Source: a virus (lineage: Duplodnaviria > Heunggongvirae > Uroviricota > Caudoviricetes). Taken from it: a stretch of DNA of 64,000 bases. This document shows positions 1 to 64,000 of the stretch, in pieces (position 1 is the first letter of the stretch; every line of letters starts with the position of its first letter). The notes beneath the pieces were generated by a model that saw only the letters and a list, made by a program, of their open reading frames with translations, was not told the origin of the DNA and made no database searches. The position numbers were made by a program, and so were the translations under genes. The stretch lies in IMG/VR virus record IMGVR_UViG_2693429713_000009, one strand, 5' to 3'.

Positions 1-359
1 TCCTCGCGGCGCGCGCGGCGAAAGCTATCACTCTTCTCGAACCACCTGTTTCTGACGTCAATGATGTTGATGATGAACAGCTGGACAAAGAGGCAAGGGA
101 GTTTGCAACGCTTCAGGCTAACCATCCGCAATGGCTGGCAGAGCGCCGGGCGGATGTGGCAACCATTGTTGAAGAATTGGGGTGCGGAGATTACGACCGC
201 AATGGCGAGCGTAAAGCTGGAGAATTCGAGGCCAACGACGAAGAGCTGGATATTGACCCTTCGGCAACGGCTGAAATTTACGGTGATTATGATGCATCTG
301 ATGCAGGGTATGACGCCGGAGATGATGATATCGCGATAGAACCGCCGGAGGATGATTAA
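1..359 (+). CDS. putative terminase small subunit (PacA-like), 3' portion; start upstream of window
   Basis: Frame open from window edge to TAA 357-359; acidic C-terminal tail (DYDASDAGYDAGDDD); stop overlaps ATG of downstream large-terminase gene. Confidence 0.4.
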   Translation, partial: LAARAAKAITLLEPPVSDVNDVDDEQLDKEAREFATLQANHPQWLAERRADVATIVEELGCGDYDRNGERKAGEFEANDEELDIDPSATAEIYGDYDASDAGYDAGDDDIAIEPPEDD

Positions 360-1867
360 TGGCTGGCGGGCGCAAGATTAAATGCGTCACCAGCGATCCA
401 CGCTGGCGCGATATGGTAATCAAATACCGCTACAACTTTACCCAGGCTGTTGTCGATATTTTTGGGATGTTCCCCTCCCACCAGCAGCAGCAGATCATTC
501 AGTCAGTGCAGGAAACGGGGAGTAGGACGACCGTCACGTCCGGACACGGAACGGGGAAGTCGTCCCTTACCGCGATGTTGCTGTTGATTTTTATGATCCT
601 GTTCCCCGATGCCCGTGTCATCATTGTTGCTAACAAGATAGGCCAGGTAAAAACAGGCGTATTCAAATACGTTAAACAGTATTGGGCGAATGCAGTTAAG
701 CGTCATGGGTGGTTGCAGACCTATTTTGTCCTCTCTGACACCATGTTTTATGAGCGCTCCCGTAAGGGGATTTGGGAAGTTCTCTGCAAAGGTTATCGAC
801 TCGGCAACGAAGAAGCGCTGGCGGGGGAACATGCGGCACATTTGCTTCTAATTCTGGATGAAGCATCTGGTATATCTGATAAGGCGATCGGCGTAATGAC
901 CGGTGCTCTTACTGAAGAAGATAACCGGATGTTGATGCTATCCCAGCCAACAAGGCCAAGTGGTTATTTCTACGATTCGCACCATTCTCAAGCAAAAACC
1001 CCAGACAACCCGAAAGGGATCTGGACAGCAATTGTTCTTAACTCGGAAGAATCACCGTTCGTCACACCACAATTCATCAAGCAGAAGCTTCTGGAATATG
1101 GCGGGCGCGATTCTATTGAGTACATGGTCAAGGTGCTTGGTCAGTTCCCACGAGAAATTAACGGCTATTTGCTTGGTCGTGATGAATGCGATCGCGCAGC
1201 TCGCCGCAAGGTGTTGTTGGAGAAAAACTGGGGATGGGTGGCAACGGCTGACGTTGGTAATGGGCGAGATAAGTCGGTCCTCAACATCTGCAAGGTATCT
1301 GGTCACAGGGATAAGCGGCGCGTTGTTAACTTTAAGGTAATGGAGATGCCTGGCACTATGGACCCATTGGCCTTTGCTGACTTCATATATAACGAATGTA
1401 CGCCGGAAAAATACCCGAATATAACAATCGCGGTTGATGCCGATGGTTTTGGTTCTGATACGTGTGCGCAGTTGGTGCGTCGTGGTGCGAACCCGGTACG
1501 TATTCGGTGGGGAAAACCCATGTTTGCGAACAAAGACAGGGAGCGATTTGTTAATCAGCGTGCCTACGCAAATATTATGGCGCGTGATGCCATAAAGTCA
1601 GGGCGTATGCGGATAGACAGTGACCCTAAAACGGCAGAGCAAGCGTCAAAAATCCCCTTTTTACTGAATGAGGAAGGGAAAATGGCGATGATGCGCAAAG
1701 AGCACATGCGGCAAAAGCTAAACATCAAATCGCCTGACCGATGGGATACCTACTGCTTCACTATGCTGGTGGACTATGTGCCTGCTAATGAAGATATTGG
1801 TGCCGAAATGGCAACTTTCCGAGATCAGGTTCTGGCGGATATCGAAATGCCAGATCTGGATATATAA
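359..1867 (+). CDS. terminase large subunit (PacB-like ATPase/nuclease)
   Basis: 502 aa; N-terminal Walker A GHGTGKSS; TAATG coupling to upstream gene; size and layout typical of large terminases. Confidence 0.7.
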   Translation: MAGGRKIKCVTSDPRWRDMVIKYRYNFTQAVVDIFGMFPSHQQQQIIQSVQETGSRTTVTSGHGTGKSSLTAMLLLIFMILFPDARVIIVANKIGQVKTGVFKYVKQYWANAVKRHGWLQTYFVLSDTMFYERSRKGIWEVLCKGYRLGNEEALAGEHAAHLLLILDEASGISDKAIGVMTGALTEEDNRMLMLSQPTRPSGYFYDSHHSQAKTPDNPKGIWTAIVLNSEESPFVTPQFIKQKLLEYGGRDSIEYMVKVLGQFPREINGYLLGRDECDRAARRKVLLEKNWGWVATADVGNGRDKSVLNICKVSGHRDKRRVVNFKVMEMPGTMDPLAFADFIYNECTPEKYPNITIAVDADGFGSDTCAQLVRRGANPVRIRWGKPMFANKDRERFVNQRAYANIMARDAIKSGRMRIDSDPKTAEQASKIPFLLNEEGKMAMMRKEHMRQKLNIKSPDRWDTYCFTMLVDYVPANEDIGAEMATFRDQVLADIEMPDLDI

Positions 1868-1894: not shown

Positions 1895-2932
1895 TTACCA
1901 GAGCTTCGCGGCGTACTGCGTTTGGGGGAATGTGTATCCGTAACGTTCTTCGATTGCTTTGCCGTATTTTTTACGAGCTTCATTCAGTTTAATGCCGGTC
2001 AGGTCGTCTCCAGAGGCCATCATTACGTCTAACAATTCCAGATCCATTTTATCCAGCCTTGCCATTGCTTCACGTGATGTACGTATCTTACGCTCAATGA
2101 TATGGCGAATAGCCGGATCGGCATCCTCCAGCATCTTAGCGGATTTCTGCTTAAGGCTTTCATTGCGAATATCGATGTTCCTTAAGATGTACGACTTCGC
2201 AACGTAGCTTGGCTGGTGTTTTTCCAGGTCACGAACACGATATAAGTTAAAATCGCCGAGAAGGCTGCAAGGTACCGATTCGACGCCAGAATAAATTGTA
2301 ATGCTCCGGCGTTCACCAACATTATTGACAACGGGGATCGTTGTCTTCGGTAGTCTTGCGAAAACCAATGCGCCATGTGCGCCAACTCTAAAGCGAGAAA
2401 GGGCATTGCTGCCTTCGATGTTTGTTGTCAGCACAACATCTGTATATGCCTCTTTACGCGCCCGGTAGATCTCGCCTTCAGGCTCAGCTTCAAAGAAGCG
2501 CTGTTCTTCTTCAAGAGCACCTACGATTTGAGAAAAAACCCTATTTTTCAGGCTTTTCTTTATGATTTTGTCGTATTTTTTGAGCAATTGTTCACGTGTA
2601 AATGTACGTGTTGTTGTAGCGCTTTGCACAACAACATGCGTGCTTTGATTGGTGTCCTCAATGATGAATGGGATCGGAGAATATACAGACTCAACAATGT
2701 TCGACGCTTTGCCGTCGGCATCGCGACACATGTCAACGAAGGCTTTCCATTCAGCAAGACATTTTTCAGCTTCTTCTAATATGTTTTGGTCATGCGTTAA
2801 TGCAACATGGCGGAATTCCTCGCCAGCATAACTGGTATCATGGAAAACAGAGTTTGCGACCACCAGCTCTTTCCACCGTTCAGCGGTTTGCAGGAACCGT
2901 TTGTACTCTTTCTCGATCGACTTCTTACTCAT
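1895..2932 (-). CDS. hypothetical protein; candidate C1-type primary immunity repressor (by position and adjacent operator)
   Basis: 345 aa ORF with AGGA SD; occupies the c1 position between pac genes and lox-cre as I recall it in P1; 17-bp operator-like motif 13 bp upstream of its start; no sequence similarity to P1 C1 recognised. Confidence 0.4.
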   Translation of the reverse strand: MSKKSIEKEYKRFLQTAERWKELVVANSVFHDTSYAGEEFRHVALTHDQNILEEAEKCLAEWKAFVDMCRDADGKASNIVESVYSPIPFIIEDTNQSTHVVVQSATTTRTFTREQLLKKYDKIIKKSLKNRVFSQIVGALEEEQRFFEAEPEGEIYRARKEAYTDVVLTTNIEGSNALSRFRVGAHGALVFARLPKTTIPVVNNVGERRSITIYSGVESVPCSLLGDFNLYRVRDLEKHQPSYVAKSYILRNIDIRNESLKQKSAKMLEDADPAIRHIIERKIRTSREAMARLDKMDLELLDVMMASGDDLTGIKLNEARKKYGKAIEERYGYTFPQTQYAAKLW

Positions 2933-2944
2933 TATTCCTACTCG

Positions 2945-2961
2945 ATTTAGTTTTCTAACAT
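2945..2961 (-). promoter_or_regulatory. operator-like 17-bp motif, site A (ATGTTAGAAAACTAAAT on minus strand)
   Basis: Member of a dispersed motif family (consensus about TGTGTTAGAAAAYTAAA) found in at least 7 intergenic regions. Confidence 0.4.
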
Positions 2962-3142
2962 AAAATTACTATGACAAATTTATGTCGAATAACAGAGTGA
3001 GTAAAGGATCGAACTGTGATTTTTTGTCATCAATTTTAGAAAACCAACTGTATAAACCACACTTCGCAAATTAAAGACCATGAAGGCAACGTGTTACTGG
3101 TCAGAATCAATCTGTGATGGATTAAAAAAAATCGCCATTTTA

Positions 3143-3174
3143 TAACTTTAAATAATTGGCATTATTTAAAGTTA
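3143..3174. other. lox-like recombination site candidate (inverted arms around an asymmetric core)
   Basis: TAACTTTAAATA-ATTGGCAT-TATTTAAAGTTA: 12-bp perfect inverted arms flanking an 8-bp asymmetric spacer, about 150 bp upstream of the Cre-like gene. Confidence 0.4.
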
Positions 3175-3326
3175 GGCTATAATCATGTGTAGATGAACAG
3201 TGTTGACATCACTGAAAATACGTGCCTCGAATCAAAGGCTTGTATTTTGAAAATTAACTTATAGCTACCCTGTCATTTTTATATTTTTCGCGTAGCGTCA
3301 TCTGTATATAGAGGTCAAATAGTTTC

Positions 3327-4355
3327 ATGAGTGAATTAATTATCTCTGGCAGTTCCGGTGGTTTTCTGCGCAACATTGGCAAAGAGTACCAGGAAGCCGC
3401 AGAAAACTTTATGCGGTTCATGAATGACCAGGGGGCTTATGCGCCGAATACTCTGCGCGACCTCCGTTTGGTGTTTCATTCCTGGGCGCGCTGGTGTCAC
3501 GCTCGCCAGCTTGCCTGGTTTCCGATCTCACCAGAAATGGCCCGCGAGTATTTTCTTCAGCTGCATGATGCCGATCTGGCTTCGACCACCATTGATAAGC
3601 ACTACGCCATGCTGAACATGCTGCTTTCGCATTGTGGCCTTCCGCCACTTTCGGATGATAAAAGTGTTTCTCTGGCTATGCGGCGCATCCGGCGCGAAGC
3701 GGCAACTGAAAAAGGCGAACGAACAGGCCAGGCTATACCGCTGCGGTGGGACGATCTGAAACTGCTCGACGTCCTGTTGTCCAGGTCAGAACGGCTGGTG
3801 GACCTGCGCAACCGGGCTTTTCTCTTTGTTGCATACAATACGCTGATGCGTATGTCGGAAATATCGCGTATTCGTGTAGGTGATCTGGACCAAACAGGTG
3901 ACACTGTCACGCTACATATTTCACACACGAAGACAATAACGACCGCCGCCGGGCTTGATAAGGTGCTTTCCCGTCGCACTACCGCTGTGCTGAATGACTG
4001 GCTGGATGTTTCCGGGCTTCGCGAACACCCTGACGCAGTGCTGTTCCCGCCGATACACCGTAGCAATAAGGCCAGGATCACGACAACGCCACTTACTGCA
4101 CCTGCAATGGAGAAAATATTCAGCGACGCCTGGGTGTTGCTGAATAAAAGAGATGCTACGCCAAACAAAGGAAGATACCGGACGTGGACCGGGCATAGTG
4201 CACGCGTCGGGGCCGCTATTGATATGGCTGAAAAGCAGGTGTCTATGGTGGAGATCATGCAGGAAGGAACCTGGAAGAAACCGGAAACACTTATGCGGTA
4301 TCTCCGCCGTGGCGGCGTGTCTGTGGGGGCTAATAGCCGCCTGATGGATTCGTAA
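3327..4355 (+). CDS. cre: Cre-like tyrosine site-specific recombinase
   Basis: 342 aa; alignable by eye with P1 Cre (…SVSLAMRRIRRE…, AYNTLMRMSEISRIRV, TGHSARVGAA, LMRYLRR with catalytic Tyr); R-K-H-R-W-Y positions conserved. Confidence 0.85.
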   Translation: MSELIISGSSGGFLRNIGKEYQEAAENFMRFMNDQGAYAPNTLRDLRLVFHSWARWCHARQLAWFPISPEMAREYFLQLHDADLASTTIDKHYAMLNMLLSHCGLPPLSDDKSVSLAMRRIRREAATEKGERTGQAIPLRWDDLKLLDVLLSRSERLVDLRNRAFLFVAYNTLMRMSEISRIRVGDLDQTGDTVTLHISHTKTITTAAGLDKVLSRRTTAVLNDWLDVSGLREHPDAVLFPPIHRSNKARITTTPLTAPAMEKIFSDAWVLLNKRDATPNKGRYRTWTGHSARVGAAIDMAEKQVSMVEIMQEGTWKKPETLMRYLRRGGVSVGANSRLMDS

Positions 4356-4356
4356 A

Positions 4357-4372
4357 TTAAATTTCTAACACA
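4357..4372 (-). promoter_or_regulatory. operator-like motif, site B (TGTGTTAGAAATTTAA on minus strand)
   Basis: Same motif family as site A; lies immediately after cre stop and upstream of the next operon. Confidence 0.35.
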
Positions 4373-4428
4373 TCTTTTTAGATTAACATCTTTGCTGTAA
4401 AGTACCCTCGCCTACTTAGGAGGGTGCT

Positions 4429-4773
4429 TTGCAGAGTCAAATCACGGAATCAAGACGCTTCAAGGTGGATGGTTACACCGTAACCTTCGCCGCTGGTGTT
4501 AAGAACAGTCATGCTGTCGTTGTGTTCGGCATCATGACCGGGCTTGAGGCCGTCCCTGTGTTTACCCTCGAAAAAAACTGGCGAAATCTGGCGGAAGCAG
4601 AAAGCTACGTCCGGAAAGTAACCATCATTGCCGCCGAAAAACTCCTGGCCCACTATCAGGAAAATTATCGCACTATGGTCGAGAAGATTAATCTCGCTTT
4701 CACTCGCCCCACTACCGGCTTTATTGCACCGGATACTAATGCAGGTCGATATCCTGCAAGGGGGCGTCGGTGA
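4429..4773 (+). CDS. hypothetical protein (TTG start)
   Basis: 114 aa ORF preceded by AGGAGG; ATGA overlap with next gene. Confidence 0.5.
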   Translation: MQSQITESRRFKVDGYTVTFAAGVKNSHAVVVFGIMTGLEAVPVFTLEKNWRNLAEAESYVRKVTIIAAEKLLAHYQENYRTMVEKINLAFTRPTTGFIAPDTNAGRYPARGRR

Positions 4774-5246
4774 AAACTTATTACCCATCTCTGAATTGTT
4801 ACCCATCTTCCTATCCAGAATTATCCGGGAAGCTGTTAGCTCTATTAGCTAAAGCACCTACGGAATGGTTTAAGCCAGTCGTTATCAATCCACACTTCCT
4901 GGATTACGGAACTGTTCGCACTCGTAACGAACTCAAAAACCTACTGGCGCATGGATTCATTCGACACCGTGCCGGGAAAGGCTATCAGTTAGCGATTGCG
5001 CCAGAAGAGGCCGTGCGGCTATTCGCATATCGTGACAGCCAGACAAAAGCTCGGGTAATAGCTCAAATACTTCATAACGGCAGCACCTATGCCCGCCAGT
5101 TTGGCGGCGACACGTCGCAGTTCTTGCGGGCGGTGCGATCGCTGGAGGAGCAAGGAGTTATTGAAAGTTCCTGTCTTCCTGTTCCTACCGTTCCACATAT
5201 CAAACGTCGGGTTTACACCTTCACGCAGAGAGCTAAAAAACAATGA
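4770..5246 (+). CDS. hypothetical protein
   Basis: 158 aa ORF translationally coupled on both sides (ATGA overlaps). Confidence 0.5.
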   Translation: MKTYYPSLNCYPSSYPELSGKLLALLAKAPTEWFKPVVINPHFLDYGTVRTRNELKNLLAHGFIRHRAGKGYQLAIAPEEAVRLFAYRDSQTKARVIAQILHNGSTYARQFGGDTSQFLRAVRSLEEQGVIESSCLPVPTVPHIKRRVYTFTQRAKKQ

Positions 5247-5737
5247 TTTACGTAAAAGTGAAACGCCTACATCCGGCAGCAAAACTTCCAGCTTATGCCA
5301 CCTCCGGATCGGCGGCGATGGATTTTGAGGCTGTTGAAATAAAACCATGCGTCGATAGCAATGGTGCAATTTCCTCAAGCTGGTGGGTGTACACCGGACT
5401 GGCTATGGAGATCCCGCCCGGCTGGTGTCTGAAACTCTATCCGCGCTCCGGATTGGGCTGCAAAAAACATACTCGCCTGGCTAACTGCGTAGGAATTATC
5501 GACTCCGATTATCGCGGTGAAATCATGGCAAAACTGATTACTGATCCAGGCGGGGAAGTCGTTCGTCTCAAGCCTGGAATGGCTGTCATGCAAGGCATTT
5601 TTGAGCGTGTTGAACAAGTCTCACTAGTCGAGGTTGAGGAACTCAACGAAACGGAACGTGGTGCTGGTGGCTTTGGTAGCACATCGGAAGACCACTTTGA
5701 AATCAAGCGCACACCGCTTCAGTACGCAAAGTTTTAA
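5243..5737 (+). CDS. dut: dUTP diphosphatase (dUTPase)
   Basis: 164 aa; hallmark dUTPase motifs (…YPRSGLG…, GIIDSDYRGE). Confidence 0.8.
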   Translation: MIYVKVKRLHPAAKLPAYATSGSAAMDFEAVEIKPCVDSNGAISSSWWVYTGLAMEIPPGWCLKLYPRSGLGCKKHTRLANCVGIIDSDYRGEIMAKLITDPGGEVVRLKPGMAVMQGIFERVEQVSLVEVEELNETERGAGGFGSTSEDHFEIKRTPLQYAKF

Positions 5738-5751
5738 GCAGAGGAAAGGCT

Positions 5752-6402
5752 ATGAATTACATGGCAACGAAAGAGCTTTTTAAGTTCCTTCCCAAATACA
5801 AAGCTCACAAAAACGTTAGTGCATCGAAAATCAAAAATGTTGTTATTTTCGGAGTAACTGATGCCCCACTTTGGGGCTGCATTGAACTCGTTGAACCAAA
5901 AGGGGCAACAGTTTGTGTTGACGCAATATTTTTACAAAAACACCGACCAAAAACTGGCGGGTATCTGATCGTTTATGAAAACGGTTATCTGTTCTATGCC
6001 CCGGAGAAACCATTTGAGGAATGCTATGGCCTGGTTAACGACGCCTCCGAAAATGGAACCACGGTCATCATTACGGATGACAACGGCGTGATGATTAATA
6101 TTACCGGGAGCGTAACTATTTCTGCTGGTGGTACCACTACCCAGCAAGAGGAAATCGACCTTGAAGCAGCCGACTTTTCTGATGCGCTAATGTGGCTGAA
6201 AGAAGGAAAAAATGTAGCTCGACGCGAGTGGAAAGGCGAAAAGCAATTCTGCTGGTTAGTTCTCGCTGGGAGCGTCAATTTACACGACATTCAGGTTCCT
6301 TATGGTGACCATTTCGTATTGAAAGATGCACAAAATATGGACAGCGTTTGGTTGCCGTCTGTTGATGATTTACTGGCTTGTGACTGGTTTGTAGTGGAGT
6401 GA
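5752..6402 (+). CDS. hypothetical phage protein with C-terminal DUF2829-like motif
   Basis: 216 aa; C-terminal ALMWLKEGKNVARREWKG…W pattern recalled from a phage DUF family (from memory). Confidence 0.45.
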   Translation: MNYMATKELFKFLPKYKAHKNVSASKIKNVVIFGVTDAPLWGCIELVEPKGATVCVDAIFLQKHRPKTGGYLIVYENGYLFYAPEKPFEECYGLVNDASENGTTVIITDDNGVMINITGSVTISAGGTTTQQEEIDLEAADFSDALMWLKEGKNVARREWKGEKQFCWLVLAGSVNLHDIQVPYGDHFVLKDAQNMDSVWLPSVDDLLACDWFVVE

Positions 6403-6408
6403 TTTGAC

Positions 6409-7176
6409 ATGGAAAGCACCAAAACAATTCAATACCGCTTGCGTAATGGCCTGCTGGTGGCTGTTAACGCCGACATGTCACTGCCGTTTGACACGATTGA
6501 ACGCACTATCATGACGTATCTCGGCTTTAATGAAGAGCTGAATGAAGAGCATGGCGTAGCTATATGGAGTGATGCAGACAGCGGCGTTCGTCGTTACATC
6601 ACCGCCAGGGGCAAAGACTACTCTCTGGAAGAACTGTTTGCCCTTGCGCAGTCTTTCGAATGTGTAGCATTAGACCTGTTTAATGATCCTGCTATAGCGC
6701 AACGACTTATACGCGAGCTTGGGCTATCCGTTACACCAATTATCTTTAAAAATGGCAGCCTGACTGGCACATGGCGCGTAGAACGCATCTCAAACTACCT
6801 TCCATATAACCGACAGTTAAATGGAGTAATCTCCGGCGTTAATCAGCCCGTAGCGTGTGAAAATGTAAACCTGGTTGTCGCTGTTTTGGCAACCGCATGT
6901 CGTGTTATCGGTTTGGCTAAACAGGCATTTATTCATTTCCCAAATGGTGCAGAAGGTAGCGCAGAGATTATCGCGTGTGATTTCGAATTTACCTGGATGC
7001 TACGCGAATATCTGGACCAAACAGTGTTCCGCGCCGAAGAACTGGATATGTATATCACGTCAACGATTCCTGATGATGTGCGTGCTGAAGCAATCGCTAC
7101 AGCAAGGGCCAAATGCCGTGCGGCGATTGCAGAGCAGGCCAAAGAAGAAGTTAAGGAAGTGGCAGATGGCGACTAA
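6409..7176 (+). CDS. hypothetical protein, upstream partner of terminase-like paralog
   Basis: 255 aa ORF; 11-nt overlap with downstream terminase-like gene; same small-then-large arrangement as the pac genes. Confidence 0.45.
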   Translation: MESTKTIQYRLRNGLLVAVNADMSLPFDTIERTIMTYLGFNEELNEEHGVAIWSDADSGVRRYITARGKDYSLEELFALAQSFECVALDLFNDPAIAQRLIRELGLSVTPIIFKNGSLTGTWRVERISNYLPYNRQLNGVISGVNQPVACENVNLVVAVLATACRVIGLAKQAFIHFPNGAEGSAEIIACDFEFTWMLREYLDQTVFRAEELDMYITSTIPDDVRAEAIATARAKCRAAIAEQAKEEVKEVADGD

Positions 7177-8260
7177 GAGCAATATTTATAAAGATCCGCG
7201 CTGGCTGTCGCTGGTGGAGAAATATAAAGACAATTGGGTTCTGGCAGCAAAAGAATTGTTTGATATTGATTTAAGCCACCAGCAACAACAAATTGTTGAA
7301 GCTATACAGCCCAATAATGCAAAAGCTACTGTCACCACTCCGCATGGGATCGGACGACCGCAAGTGCTTGCTGTTATTAGTACCCTTTATACGATTATGT
7401 ATCCTGATTCCCGGACAGTAATTGTTTATCCAAAATCAAATGCTTGCAAAAAAGGAATTGTTGCATATGTGTGGCAATGTTGGGAGGCATTACTGAAAAA
7501 ACAACCTTTTATCATTGAGTATTTTAAGGTCGGTGATAGCGGTCTGATGTTCAATGAATTTTGGGGAATGTGCTTTTGTAACTACCGCCTTAACTATGAA
7601 GATAGCATTGCAGGTCACTACGCCGACCATCTGTTATTCATTATTGTGGATTCCGCACATATAAGCGATCGGGCATACAGTATTGTGTGGGCAAGCATGA
7701 CTAGTGGTGATTCACGCATATTGCTCACTTCAATTCCGTCACCAGAGGAAATAGGATTTTTTTATGATTCTCATCATGGGCGTGCTTTAGCTGAAGATAA
7801 TCCGAGTGGTGTCTATAAAGCCATTAAGCTGAGTGCTGAGGATTCACCATTTATTACCCAAGAATATCTTGATCATTTTGCCGAAAGGTATGGCGGGCGA
7901 AATAGTGATGACTACCGTCGTATGATTCTTGGTGAGTTCCCTGGTATTAGGGAGGCTGTTCTTGAATCAGATATGCCGAAAACAATGCGTTTTTCAATGC
8001 CTGATGGCAGTGAATGGACAATGCCATTACGAGTGATAGCCAAGCATCATGCACAGCACCACGCCAAAAAACATGGCGTTACAACATTAGAGTGGTTGAA
8101 ATCGCACACCATTCCACTCTTCACTGCAGATCACAATGCTATCGTTGAGTGGGCAAAAACAATTCCGTGGGGGAATGTCGCTGAATACGCCCACATGCTA
8201 AAACCGCCGAAAGACAGGCAAGAAATTAGCTGGCTGACAGCAGAAAAAATCATTGAGTGA
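7166..8260 (+). CDS. terminase-large-subunit-like paralog with degenerate Walker A
   Basis: 364 aa; shares DPRW, HQQQQI, FYDSHH, EDSPF, YGGR(D/N)S, LG(Q/E)FP blocks with the 359-1867 terminase, but P-loop is PHGIGRPQ instead of GHGTGKS and the C-terminus is unrelated. Confidence 0.55.
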   Translation: MATKSNIYKDPRWLSLVEKYKDNWVLAAKELFDIDLSHQQQQIVEAIQPNNAKATVTTPHGIGRPQVLAVISTLYTIMYPDSRTVIVYPKSNACKKGIVAYVWQCWEALLKKQPFIIEYFKVGDSGLMFNEFWGMCFCNYRLNYEDSIAGHYADHLLFIIVDSAHISDRAYSIVWASMTSGDSRILLTSIPSPEEIGFFYDSHHGRALAEDNPSGVYKAIKLSAEDSPFITQEYLDHFAERYGGRNSDDYRRMILGEFPGIREAVLESDMPKTMRFSMPDGSEWTMPLRVIAKHHAQHHAKKHGVTTLEWLKSHTIPLFTADHNAIVEWAKTIPWGNVAEYAHMLKPPKDRQEISWLTAEKIIE

Positions 8261-8267
8261 TAGTAGA

Positions 8268-8297
8268 AAGCCCGCCTGGTTGAGCGGGCTTCTTTTC
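8268..8297. terminator. intrinsic terminator hairpin between convergent genes
   Basis: AAGCCCGC-ctggttga-GCGGGCTT followed by CTTTTC. Confidence 0.55.
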
Positions 8298-8676
8298 AAA
8301 TATTGGAACCATATAGTTCACGTAGTTTTTCCGCTACTGAAGATACGGGGATTTCACCAGTTGCAGCCCCCACCGCAAGTTCCACCAGCACGGGAGAATC
8401 ATATACCTGTATACCGTTACGGCGTAGAAATAGCAGCGCACTGTTTAGCGCGGTACGCTTATTGGCATCATTGAATATATGCCCTCTCGCTGTAGCCACC
8501 AGGTAGGTGGCGGAGACTTCGAAAAGGTCGGTGATCTCTTCGTAGGCAACTCTGGCCTGAACTCTCCCGATAATGGCCTCTGCCCTACCCGGATCTGACA
8601 TTCCCGGCAGGCCGCCGTAGCGGTTTATATTCGCATCATGAAGCGCAATAAGTTCTTCCGGTGATATATGCCTCAT
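8296..8676 (-). CDS. doc: Doc toxin (Fic-fold kinase) of the phd-doc addiction module
   Basis: 126 aa; N-terminus [17 protein letters not shown]…; nearly identical to P1 Doc as I recall it. Confidence 0.9.
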
Positions 8677-8897
8677 TATCGGTTAACCAGTTCCTTGTTG
8701 GTGGAGTCCAGGGTGTCAAACAGGGATGCAAATTCAGCATCCAGCGCCGCTTTTTTGTAGGCTTCGAAAGTAGCCTTGCTGACAATTACTGCTGGCTCAC
8801 GGCCTCTGCGGGTGATTTCAACCTCTTCCCCGGCTTCAACATTGTTGAGCACTTCAGAAAGGTTGCCGCGCGCGGTACGGAAGTTAATGGATTGCAT
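8676..8897 (-). CDS. phd: Phd antitoxin
   Basis: 73 aa from ATG at 8897 ([17 protein letters not shown]…); stop overlaps doc start. Confidence 0.9.
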
Positions 8898-8906
8898 AAA
8901 CACCTC

Positions 8907-8969: not shown

Positions 8970-9359
8970 TTAAATAACCGGACAATCATCAAACTCCCCA
9001 CTTCGGGCATCATTGATGACATGAGTGATCACACCAAAAACAGCATTACTCCCCGTGCATCCATCGTCATCCACTGGTAACGCCTCTTTCTTCCCAGTGC
9101 TTAAATCCTCCAGGTGCTGGCGCGGATACTTCCGGTATCTCTTTATGCGATATTCACCCTCCATAGCGCAGACAAGTAGCGAACCATCAACCGGAGTAAG
9201 TGAGGAATCGACCACCAGCAAAGCACCCTGCAATATTCCCTCACGGTGATGGCTATCAGCTGCCCGCATGAAGTAGGTTGCTGATGGATGCCTGATTAGT
9301 TGCTGATCAAGAGAAATTCGGCTTTCAACATAATCCGCCGCAGGAGAAGGGAAGCCCAT
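8970..9359 (-). CDS. humD: UmuD'-like protein (HumD-like)
   Basis: 129 aa; UmuD-like core (…PSPAADYVE…HPSATYF…) lacking the cleavable N-terminal arm. Confidence 0.75.
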   Translation of the reverse strand: MGFPSPAADYVESRISLDQQLIRHPSATYFMRAADSHHREGILQGALLVVDSSLTPVDGSLLVCAMEGEYRIKRYRKYPRQHLEDLSTGKKEALPVDDDGCTGSNAVFGVITHVINDARSGEFDDCPVI

Positions 9360-62361: not shown

Positions 62362-64000
62362 TTAAACGCTCGCTACATTATACCAGGTGCCATTTATATA
62401 CTTTTGAACGGGTCTGTAATAAACGCCCGCTATATTATCGGCAGAATTGGACCCTGTATCCTGAACATTAATACCAGACAATACATGACCTGACGGGCAC
62501 TGGAAATTCCATGTTTGCCAGTTGTTCACTCCATAATATTGCTGTGAACCAAGTCGAATATCTTTCACATATCGGGAATCAATGTTACCCCAGTTGCTTG
62601 GTTGTATCTGACCGTTTACAGCAAATGTCACCGAGTTATCTGTATTTCGCTGACTATAGAAATGCCAGCCTGAATCATCACCAAGCTCTGCAACAGTTGG
62701 TCTTGACGAATTTCCCCACAAGTTAAATGATGCATTACGGGCAGCTGTATTTGAGCTTGAAAGTGTGAATAACTTACTTTCCCCAGTCTGAATACCCTTT
62801 AATGATATTGCTGAACCATTTCTAAAGCGGAATACATGCACACCATTAGCATAAGCATCCAGCACCCCATCACCATTTTGTTTAAACCCGGTATCGTTAT
62901 CTCCTAAAACTATTGAATTGCCACCCAGGGCATTAGCCGTTCCAATCCCCAGATTTCCGCTAAAAATGGCATTAATACCGAATATTGAGTGAGAACAATA
63001 AAACCCTCGCCCATTGTTAAAATCAAGAATAGCTTGTGCGTTCGTGCTTTCTGTCGCGGGATTAGTTGCTCCCCACTTATATGTTGTTTGACCGACGGTA
63101 TAATCCTGAGTTGGAACAATAACCGTTAGCCCTTCTTCAGCAGAAACCCGCACAGGAAAAGCCCTGCCTTCAACGTAAAAAACGCTGCATACATCATCTT
63201 CTTTAAGGCTTGTTACAATGGAATGGATTGCGCGCTCATTAGTCTGATACGTCGAAAAATAACCTGCCGCATATGAACCACGATCAGTCCAGCCACCAGG
63301 CATTACCATTCCATTGAATTCGCAGTTATTCATTTCGTAATTACCACCGGCAGATGTGGTCGTTATAATCACTCTGGAAGCCAGCTCGCCAGTGCTGCCT
63401 GTGGAACGCCGGAAAATAACTGGATACCACTTTCCACCAACTGCATTAGACGGCGCATTAAATGCGTACTGCCGCATTCCTTTTTTCTTATCCACTTCGC
63501 CTTTGCTGTAAACATTAATGTTACTCAGGAAGCGATCTTTATCAGGAATATCCGCGCCGTTCTGGTTTTTTTGCAATGATCCAGCGGCTAATTCTACGGT
63601 TTGCTCAAGATTTAAATCTTCCGCCGTTAGCTCAATGTTTTTAGAACCATCAAACGAGACACCGTTAATAGTGCGCGCCGTCTGCAATCTGGTCGCCGTA
63701 GCAGCATTGCCGGAGGTATCCTGATCCCCTTTGGCATTGACGCCGGGAATTGAATCTTTTGACGTATAGACCTGCGCCCATTCAGACCAGTTGGCAGAAT
63801 CAGTATCCCGCCGCGAACGGATATGTACGGGCGCATGGGCACCGCTCGTGCCACTCCAGCCAATGAATAACTCACCTTCGCCAGCAGCGGTGGCACCTTT
63901 AAGGTGAAGCACATTGCCATAGGGGGAAGGGTAGCCATTGTTGTATGCCTCATACATCTGCAATCCAGTAGCAGCACCTTGCGTTGTACCGGTAAGCGCA
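62362..64000 (-). CDS. alternative tail-fibre variable C-terminal segment (Sv'-like); 5' end beyond window
   Basis: Frame open to window edge; N-terminal 150 aa homologous to the post-gix part of S; distinct C-terminal receptor-binding part. Confidence 0.65.

Follow-up and report, generated by a model that had tools for sequence, protein, structure and literature searches.

When a perfect palindrome lies immediately upstream of a tyrosine recombinase gene, the question arises whether it is the crossover site of the neighbouring enzyme and, if so, whether enzyme and site form a specificity of their own. We addressed this question for positions 3143–3174 of a 64,000-nucleotide stretch of DNA from a tailed virus (Caudoviricetes; IMG/VR record IMGVR_UViG_2693429713_000009), the whole of which is referred to here as the window. 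First-pass annotation, made from the sequence alone, had described this position as a lox-like target of the Cre-like recombinase encoded at 3327–4355, and had proposed that the two constitute a new Cre/lox specificity pair.

Architecture of the palindrome

The sequence at 3143–3174 reads letter for letter as it had originally been quoted (Table 1), and a repeat finder resolved it into a perfect inverted repeat of 14+4+14 nucleotides. The first-pass annotation had divided the same site into 12+8+12, following the register of loxP. Site and register stand, but the perfect arms are 14 nt long and the asymmetry is limited to the central 4 bp, because the first two and last two bases of the 8-bp 'spacer' ATTGGCAT are complementary. 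From the end of the site to the ATG at 3327 the distance is 152 bp, in agreement with the initial estimate of about 150 bp.

The repeat is the only perfect one in the 64 kb when arms of at least 12 nt and gaps of at most 10 nt are considered, and any such repeat appeared in just 8 of 200 windows (4%) simulated with a first-order Markov model as a control for chance. Searched as a 32-mer, the site occurs once within three mismatches in the window, against an expectation of zero. Its 14-nt half-sites, with up to three mismatches allowed, are found at chance frequency (nine matches versus 9.25 expected), and two of these nine matches are the two arms of the site itself. Scans for tRNA genes and Rfam families gave no hits in the window.

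Table 1. Coordinates of the crossover site, its parts and the genes around it in the window
Feature	Position	Strand	Remarks
rox, 32-bp Dre crossover site	3143–3174	+	TAACTTTAAATAATTGGCATTATTTAAAGTTA, dre-sense strand; 32/32 versus AY753669.1
Left 14-nt inverted-repeat arm	3143–3156		TAACTTTAAATAAT; 100% complementarity with 3161–3174
Asymmetric 4-bp core TGGC	3157–3160	+	Gives the site its direction
Right 14-nt inverted-repeat arm	3161–3174		ATTATTTAAAGTTA; repeat finder
Sigma-70-type promoter-like element	3156–3183	+	−35 TTGGCA at 3156–3161, 16-nt spacer, −10 TATAAT at 3178–3183; toward dre
dre, Cre-family tyrosine recombinase, 342 aa	3327–4355	+	342/342 aa identical to D6 Dre
pacB, large terminase subunit	359–1867	+	Context; the window start lies inside pacA
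c1 repressor gene	1895–2932	−	Divergent from dre; collinear with the c1 CDS at 3661–4698 of AY753669.1
dut	5243–5737	+	P1/D6 accessory gene
doc	8296–8676	−	P1/D6 accessory gene
phd	8676–8903	−	P1/D6 accessory gene
humD-like S24 peptidase	8970–9359	−	P1/D6 accessory gene

Identity with the Dre/rox system of phage D6

When positions 2933–4400 were compared with phage records by megablast, Escherichia phage D6 was the sole match (97.1% identity), and the D6 features underlying it are annotated 'dre: tyrosine recombinase' and 'region of crossover (rox) site for Dre recombinase'. In the D6 record AY753669.1, rox is entered as a misc_recomb feature at 4909–4940 and dre at 5093–6121, preceded by pacA, pacB and then c1 on the opposite strand. 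Alignment to this record showed identity at all 32 positions of the site and the same distance to the start codon. Positions 3143–3174 are also the exact reverse complement of rox in its usual written form, TAACTTTAAATAATGCCAATTATTTAAAGTTA. The complete D6 genome records start in the middle of the core, the match running from window position 3159 to the record end, and their annotation at the core centre reads 'right half of rox site (lox in P1)'.

The protein tells the same story. The product of 3327–4355 is identical to Dre (AAV84949.1) over all 342 residues, and the 29 DNA differences from D6 dre are all synonymous. It matches the Pfam family Phage_integrase with 62.6 bits, above the cut-off, and retains the catalytic residues R175, K202, H290, R293, W316 and Y325, all of which except K202 are included in the catalytic list given for Dre in PMC4777119. 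The same source describes Dre as ~40% homologous to Cre. A PDB sequence search with Dre yielded Cre and its engineered variants as the best matches and no solved structure of Dre; homology to the Cre structures is full-length, covering Dre residues 22–341 (E = 5e-69). In alignment the protein is thus homologous to Cre yet clearly divergent, and it is not Cre itself.

The sequence and architecture of rox, an adjacent Dre gene, the catalytic residues and the pac–c1 location typical of a P1-related plasmid prophage were all found at this locus. That 3143–3174 is rox, the target of the Dre encoded 152 bp downstream at 3327–4355, and that the element is a D6-like phage-plasmid of the P1 family, we regard as practically certain, and none of the findings speaks against this identification. 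The initial reading of a lox-type target for the adjacent Cre-like tyrosine recombinase is therefore borne out, with a specificity that differs from that of Cre/loxP. The claim of a new specificity pair does not survive, because an exact rox site accompanied by an identical Dre belongs to a system already known and experimentally characterised. PMC4777119 and PMC4957104 credit the description of Dre/rox to Sauer and McDermott (2004); the system has been published and widely used in genome engineering since 2004, and the site in the window adds nothing new to it. The case does illustrate that a real recombinase target is recognisable from sequence alone.

The element and its single rox copy

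The window begins with part of pacA, followed by pacB, c1, rox, dre, two small open reading frames, dut, phd/doc and the humD-like gene, and the order pacB, c1, site, recombinase is common to the window, D6 and P1. The window is also collinear with a plasmid of Salmonella enterica serovar Concord, NZ_CP028198.1 (window position 1 corresponding to 5359 and 63901 to 69261), to which its rox–dre region is 99.9% identical. This gene layout, the collinearity with NZ_CP028198.1 and the occurrence of rox–dre in plasmid records identify the window as a D6-like, P1-family phage-plasmid. The rox–dre region is present in 144 plasmid records (118 from Escherichia, 16 from Salmonella, nine from Shigella and one from Enterobacter), most of them non-mobilizable and about 90 kb in size. 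Exact Dre/rox is accordingly common in nature, with these records of E. coli, Salmonella, Shigella and Enterobacter complemented by 35 viral contigs.

The first-pass annotation had allowed for a better candidate site elsewhere in the element. Such a site was searched for with a relaxed two-arm scan (up to three mismatches per arm, spacers of 6–10 nt), and no second rox-like site was found in the window or in the rest of NZ_CP028198.1. As the plasmid outside the window holds no rox-like site, the element has a single rox copy.

Two further loci of the element were recorded in passing. The 364-aa product of the open reading frame at 7166–8260 (+) is a PacB paralogue, which aligns with the N-terminal half of PacB, the ATPase half, at 38% identity across 258 aa. 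Where PacB has the Walker A motif GHGTGKS, this protein has the degenerate form PHGIGRP; its counterpart in a related plasmid is annotated 'hypothetical protein', and it is possibly a terminase paralogue that has been inactivated. At or just past the position of the window end (near 63800–64000), NZ_CP028198.1 carries opposed tail-fibre assembly and tail-protein genes adjoined by a 'recombinase family protein', an arrangement which we take to be a candidate Cin-like invertible segment.

Conservation and natural variants of rox

The conservation of rox was drawn from plasmid and viral collections rather than from a one-genome-per-species scan, in which the Dre protein retrieved no close Dre and only relatives of 41–47% identity. 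Across nine aligned c1–recombinase intergenic regions, whose recombinases are 89–100% identical, rox is near-invariant and the ~110 bp directly to its left are hypervariable and essentially unalignable. Among 33 distinct sequences, the majority fraction is 0.98 within rox, compared with 0.59 and 0.86 in the adjoining 60-bp stretches on its left and right, respectively. In the 35 viral contigs the site lies 151–153 bp before the recombinase start codon; it is exact in 21 of them, and in nine the A at left-arm position 9 is replaced by G.

The remaining variation includes changes to the core. Single viral contigs carry the core GGGG, the core TAGC, or the core TGGA together with a change at the first base of the right arm, and a Shigella dysenteriae plasmid combines the core TAGT with one right-arm change. 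More distant are two contigs with recombinases 55–56% identical, in which a 13-6-13 site, TAACTTTATATAA-TGTCAG-TTATATAAAGTTA, has position 9 changed in both arms and keeps a perfect 13-nt palindrome. A paired arm change of this kind is as expected where a recombinase and its binding site evolve together. The variant-site loci are L102, L112, L116, L007 and L118/L119. The comparative evidence among these relatives argues that rox is under selection.

Relatedness between elements also changes at the site. For the E. coli plasmid CP022228, identity to D6 falls from 99.6% in the 1200 bp on the left of rox to 85.8% in the 1200 bp on its right; for LT906557, identity to the window changes in the other direction, from 82.5% (left) to 96.0% (right). 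As a boundary between differently related DNA segments, rox suggests itself as a place of inter-element exchange in the wild. These lineage mosaic breakpoints, at or next to rox, would fit exchange there and could also stem from homologous recombination nearby. The mosaic-boundary region comprises window positions 3030–3174 with both flanks and was followed at loci L003 and L008.

Other readings of the palindrome

Two explanations would deny the palindrome its role in recombination. It could be an operator, for instance of the C1 repressor, or a hairpin signal, its resemblance to lox being incidental, and its position in the divergent c1–dre intergenic region is indeed one where operators are expected. 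The operators known for P1-type C1 are 17-mers that are asymmetric and not palindromic, which counts against C1 in particular, and the discoverers of the system annotated the sequence as rox. An identical sequence, moreover, is experimentally sufficient for Dre recombination (PMC4777119, PMC12331466), and we consider the operator or signal reading very improbable. A terminator hairpin was likewise rejected: the palindrome is upstream of both flanking genes and cannot terminate either c1 or dre. The other explanation, that the palindrome arose by chance, draws on base composition, given that the intergenic region is AT-rich (31% G+C versus 47% for the window), which raises the odds of short palindromes. 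It is refuted by the identity with a published functional site, by the rarity of such repeats in the simulated windows and by conservation, since in more than 40 relatives the site is near-invariant and holds a fixed distance from the recombinase start while the neighbouring 60–110 bp are scrambled. The probability left to a chance origin is negligible.

A third proposal would add a function to the crossover role instead of replacing it. In this proposal rox is also part of the dre promoter, and rox-bound Dre would block RNA polymerase and thereby limit its own synthesis. The promoter-like element at the site (Table 1) agrees with the consensus at 11 of 12 positions and is the sole such match in 2880–4480, an interval in which chance alone would supply 2.1. 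Its −35 hexamer lies inside the rox core and its −10 hexamer 3 bp past the site, both directed toward dre. Conservation of the former is uninformative, because a hexamer inside rox would be conserved anyway. In the 33 distinct relatives the −10 hexamer reaches a majority fraction of 0.98, compared with 0.86 and 0.79 for the flanking bases, and is kept where its neighbours vary (GTATATAATAATGA, TCATATAATATTGA and GGTTATAATGTAGA); it is nevertheless lost in two relatives of ~79% identity (KX960110 and S. dysenteriae CP026808) and in the 55%-identity relatives. At 3203–3208 lies a second hexamer, the nearly invariant TTGACA, which could be part of the real dre promoter, and the annotated cre promoters of P1 all lie downstream of lox, none overlapping it. 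A literature search for a promoter or autoregulatory role of rox found nothing relevant. We rate a promoter function as doubtful, and autoregulation of dre through rox, read from these sequence features, as possible.

A related and equally tentative suggestion concerns the core variants. Rox may combine its crossover role with that of the dre promoter core, or the cores GGGG, TAGC, TGGA with its arm change and TAGT may represent naturally heterospecific classes; we hold this wider proposal to be somewhat unlikely. The part that concerns heterospecific classes is in line with the mosaic breakpoints at or next to rox. If true, such classes would govern which D6-like phage-plasmids exchange modules at rox, and the natural core variants could serve as ready-made heterospecific sites.

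Mechanism and natural role

Our assignment of the locus to Dre/rox gives it a well-studied activity. Published work defines rox as 32 bp, with two 14-bp inverted repeats around a 4-bp spacer and no cross-reaction with Cre/lox (PMC4777119, PMC12331466). With this exact 32-bp sequence, excision by Dre has been demonstrated both in vitro and in E. coli (PMC4777119), action of Dre on rox in mammalian cells as well as in plasmid assays (PMC4957104), and activity of Dre/rox in B. subtilis, where it is orthogonal to Cre/lox (PMC12331466). Dre-dependent recombination between two 32-bp rox sites is thus established in the literature for sequences identical to those of the window, and the recombination assay put forward with the first-pass annotation has already been performed many times.

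The course of the reaction can be outlined from the Cre/loxP paradigm and the published work on Dre. One Dre monomer would occupy each inverted arm, making two per rox, and the left arm (3143–3156) is presumed to be the binding site of one of them. Two Dre-bound rox sites would pair in a tetramer, in which Tyr325 would cleave the central region on one pair of strands, leading to a Holliday junction that the second strand exchange would resolve. The core TGGC would set the orientation of the site, and recombining partners would need matching cores. Functional crossover probably takes place within about 8 bp (3155–3162), as in loxP. This extent comes from mutational data and homology modelling, because the cleavage positions of Dre were unmapped as of PMC4777119; in the mutational data, compatibility is governed by two positions, 2 and 7, of the spacer equivalent to that of loxP.

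By analogy with P1 Cre/lox, two natural roles may be inferred for the system. With a single rox copy per element, Dre would convert plasmid dimers to monomers and thereby favour the stable inheritance of a low-copy prophage, and terminally redundant virion DNA with rox at both ends would be circularised by Dre. For a D6-like Salmonella plasmid, this recombinase and its site are credited with multimer resolution on the basis of annotation rather than experiment (PMC6799933), and we came across no work that tests Dre directly for dimer resolution or cyclisation in D6 itself.

Comparison with known systems

The closest counterpart is Dre/rox of Escherichia/Salmonella phage D6 itself (AY753669, MF356679), which agrees with the window in the site, the 342-aa protein, the 152-bp spacing from site to ATG and the gene order pacA-pacB-c1-rox-dre-orf-orf-dut. 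The window nonetheless derives from a different isolate: 2933–4400 is 97.1% identical, and about half of 1–25000 aligns, at 95.3%.

Other Cre-like recombinases with lox-like palindromic sites are Panto/pox from Pantoea sp. and, more distantly, Vika/vox, VCre/VloxP, SCre/SloxP and Nigri/nox, all of which differ from Dre/rox in protein, site sequence and core. Panto recombines rox and Dre recombines pox, while recombination between rox and pox is absent (PMC4957104). The one-genome-per-species set contained 74 loci (L010–L083) in Pantoea, Mixta, Rahnella, Erwinia and related genera, many of them on large contigs or megaplasmids, with recombinases 41–47% identical to Dre; these loci probably belong to the Panto/pox group.

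In P1, Cre/loxP resembles Dre/rox in having a two-arm site placed between c1 and a Cre-family recombinase gene, near pac, and neither system requires accessory sites or host factors (PMC4957104). The original statement that the site is unlike loxP was too strong: each 12-nt arm agrees with loxP at nine of 12 positions (TAACTT...ATA), and overall agreement is 20–21 of 32 depending on orientation. In the sense of the recombinase gene, the core is GCATACAT in P1 lox and ATTGGCAT in the rox of the window, with a common 3' CAT beside the recombinase-proximal arm, which indicates that rox and lox have the same orientation relative to the recombinase gene. The central sequences differ, however, and rox is a 32-bp site of 14-4-14, compared with the 34 bp and 13-8-13 of loxP; the site in the window does not have the latter arrangement, its 13th outer base pair being non-complementary (A versus G). 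The site-to-gene distance is 152 bp for rox and about 420 bp for P1 lox, where the cra open reading frame and three mapped promoters lie between lox and cre (the P1 record starts in the middle of lox, with cre at 436). Cre and Dre, finally, do not recombine each other's sites (PMC12331466). Dre/rox is a sister system of Cre/loxP, and the site at 3143–3174 is its rox, not a loxP.
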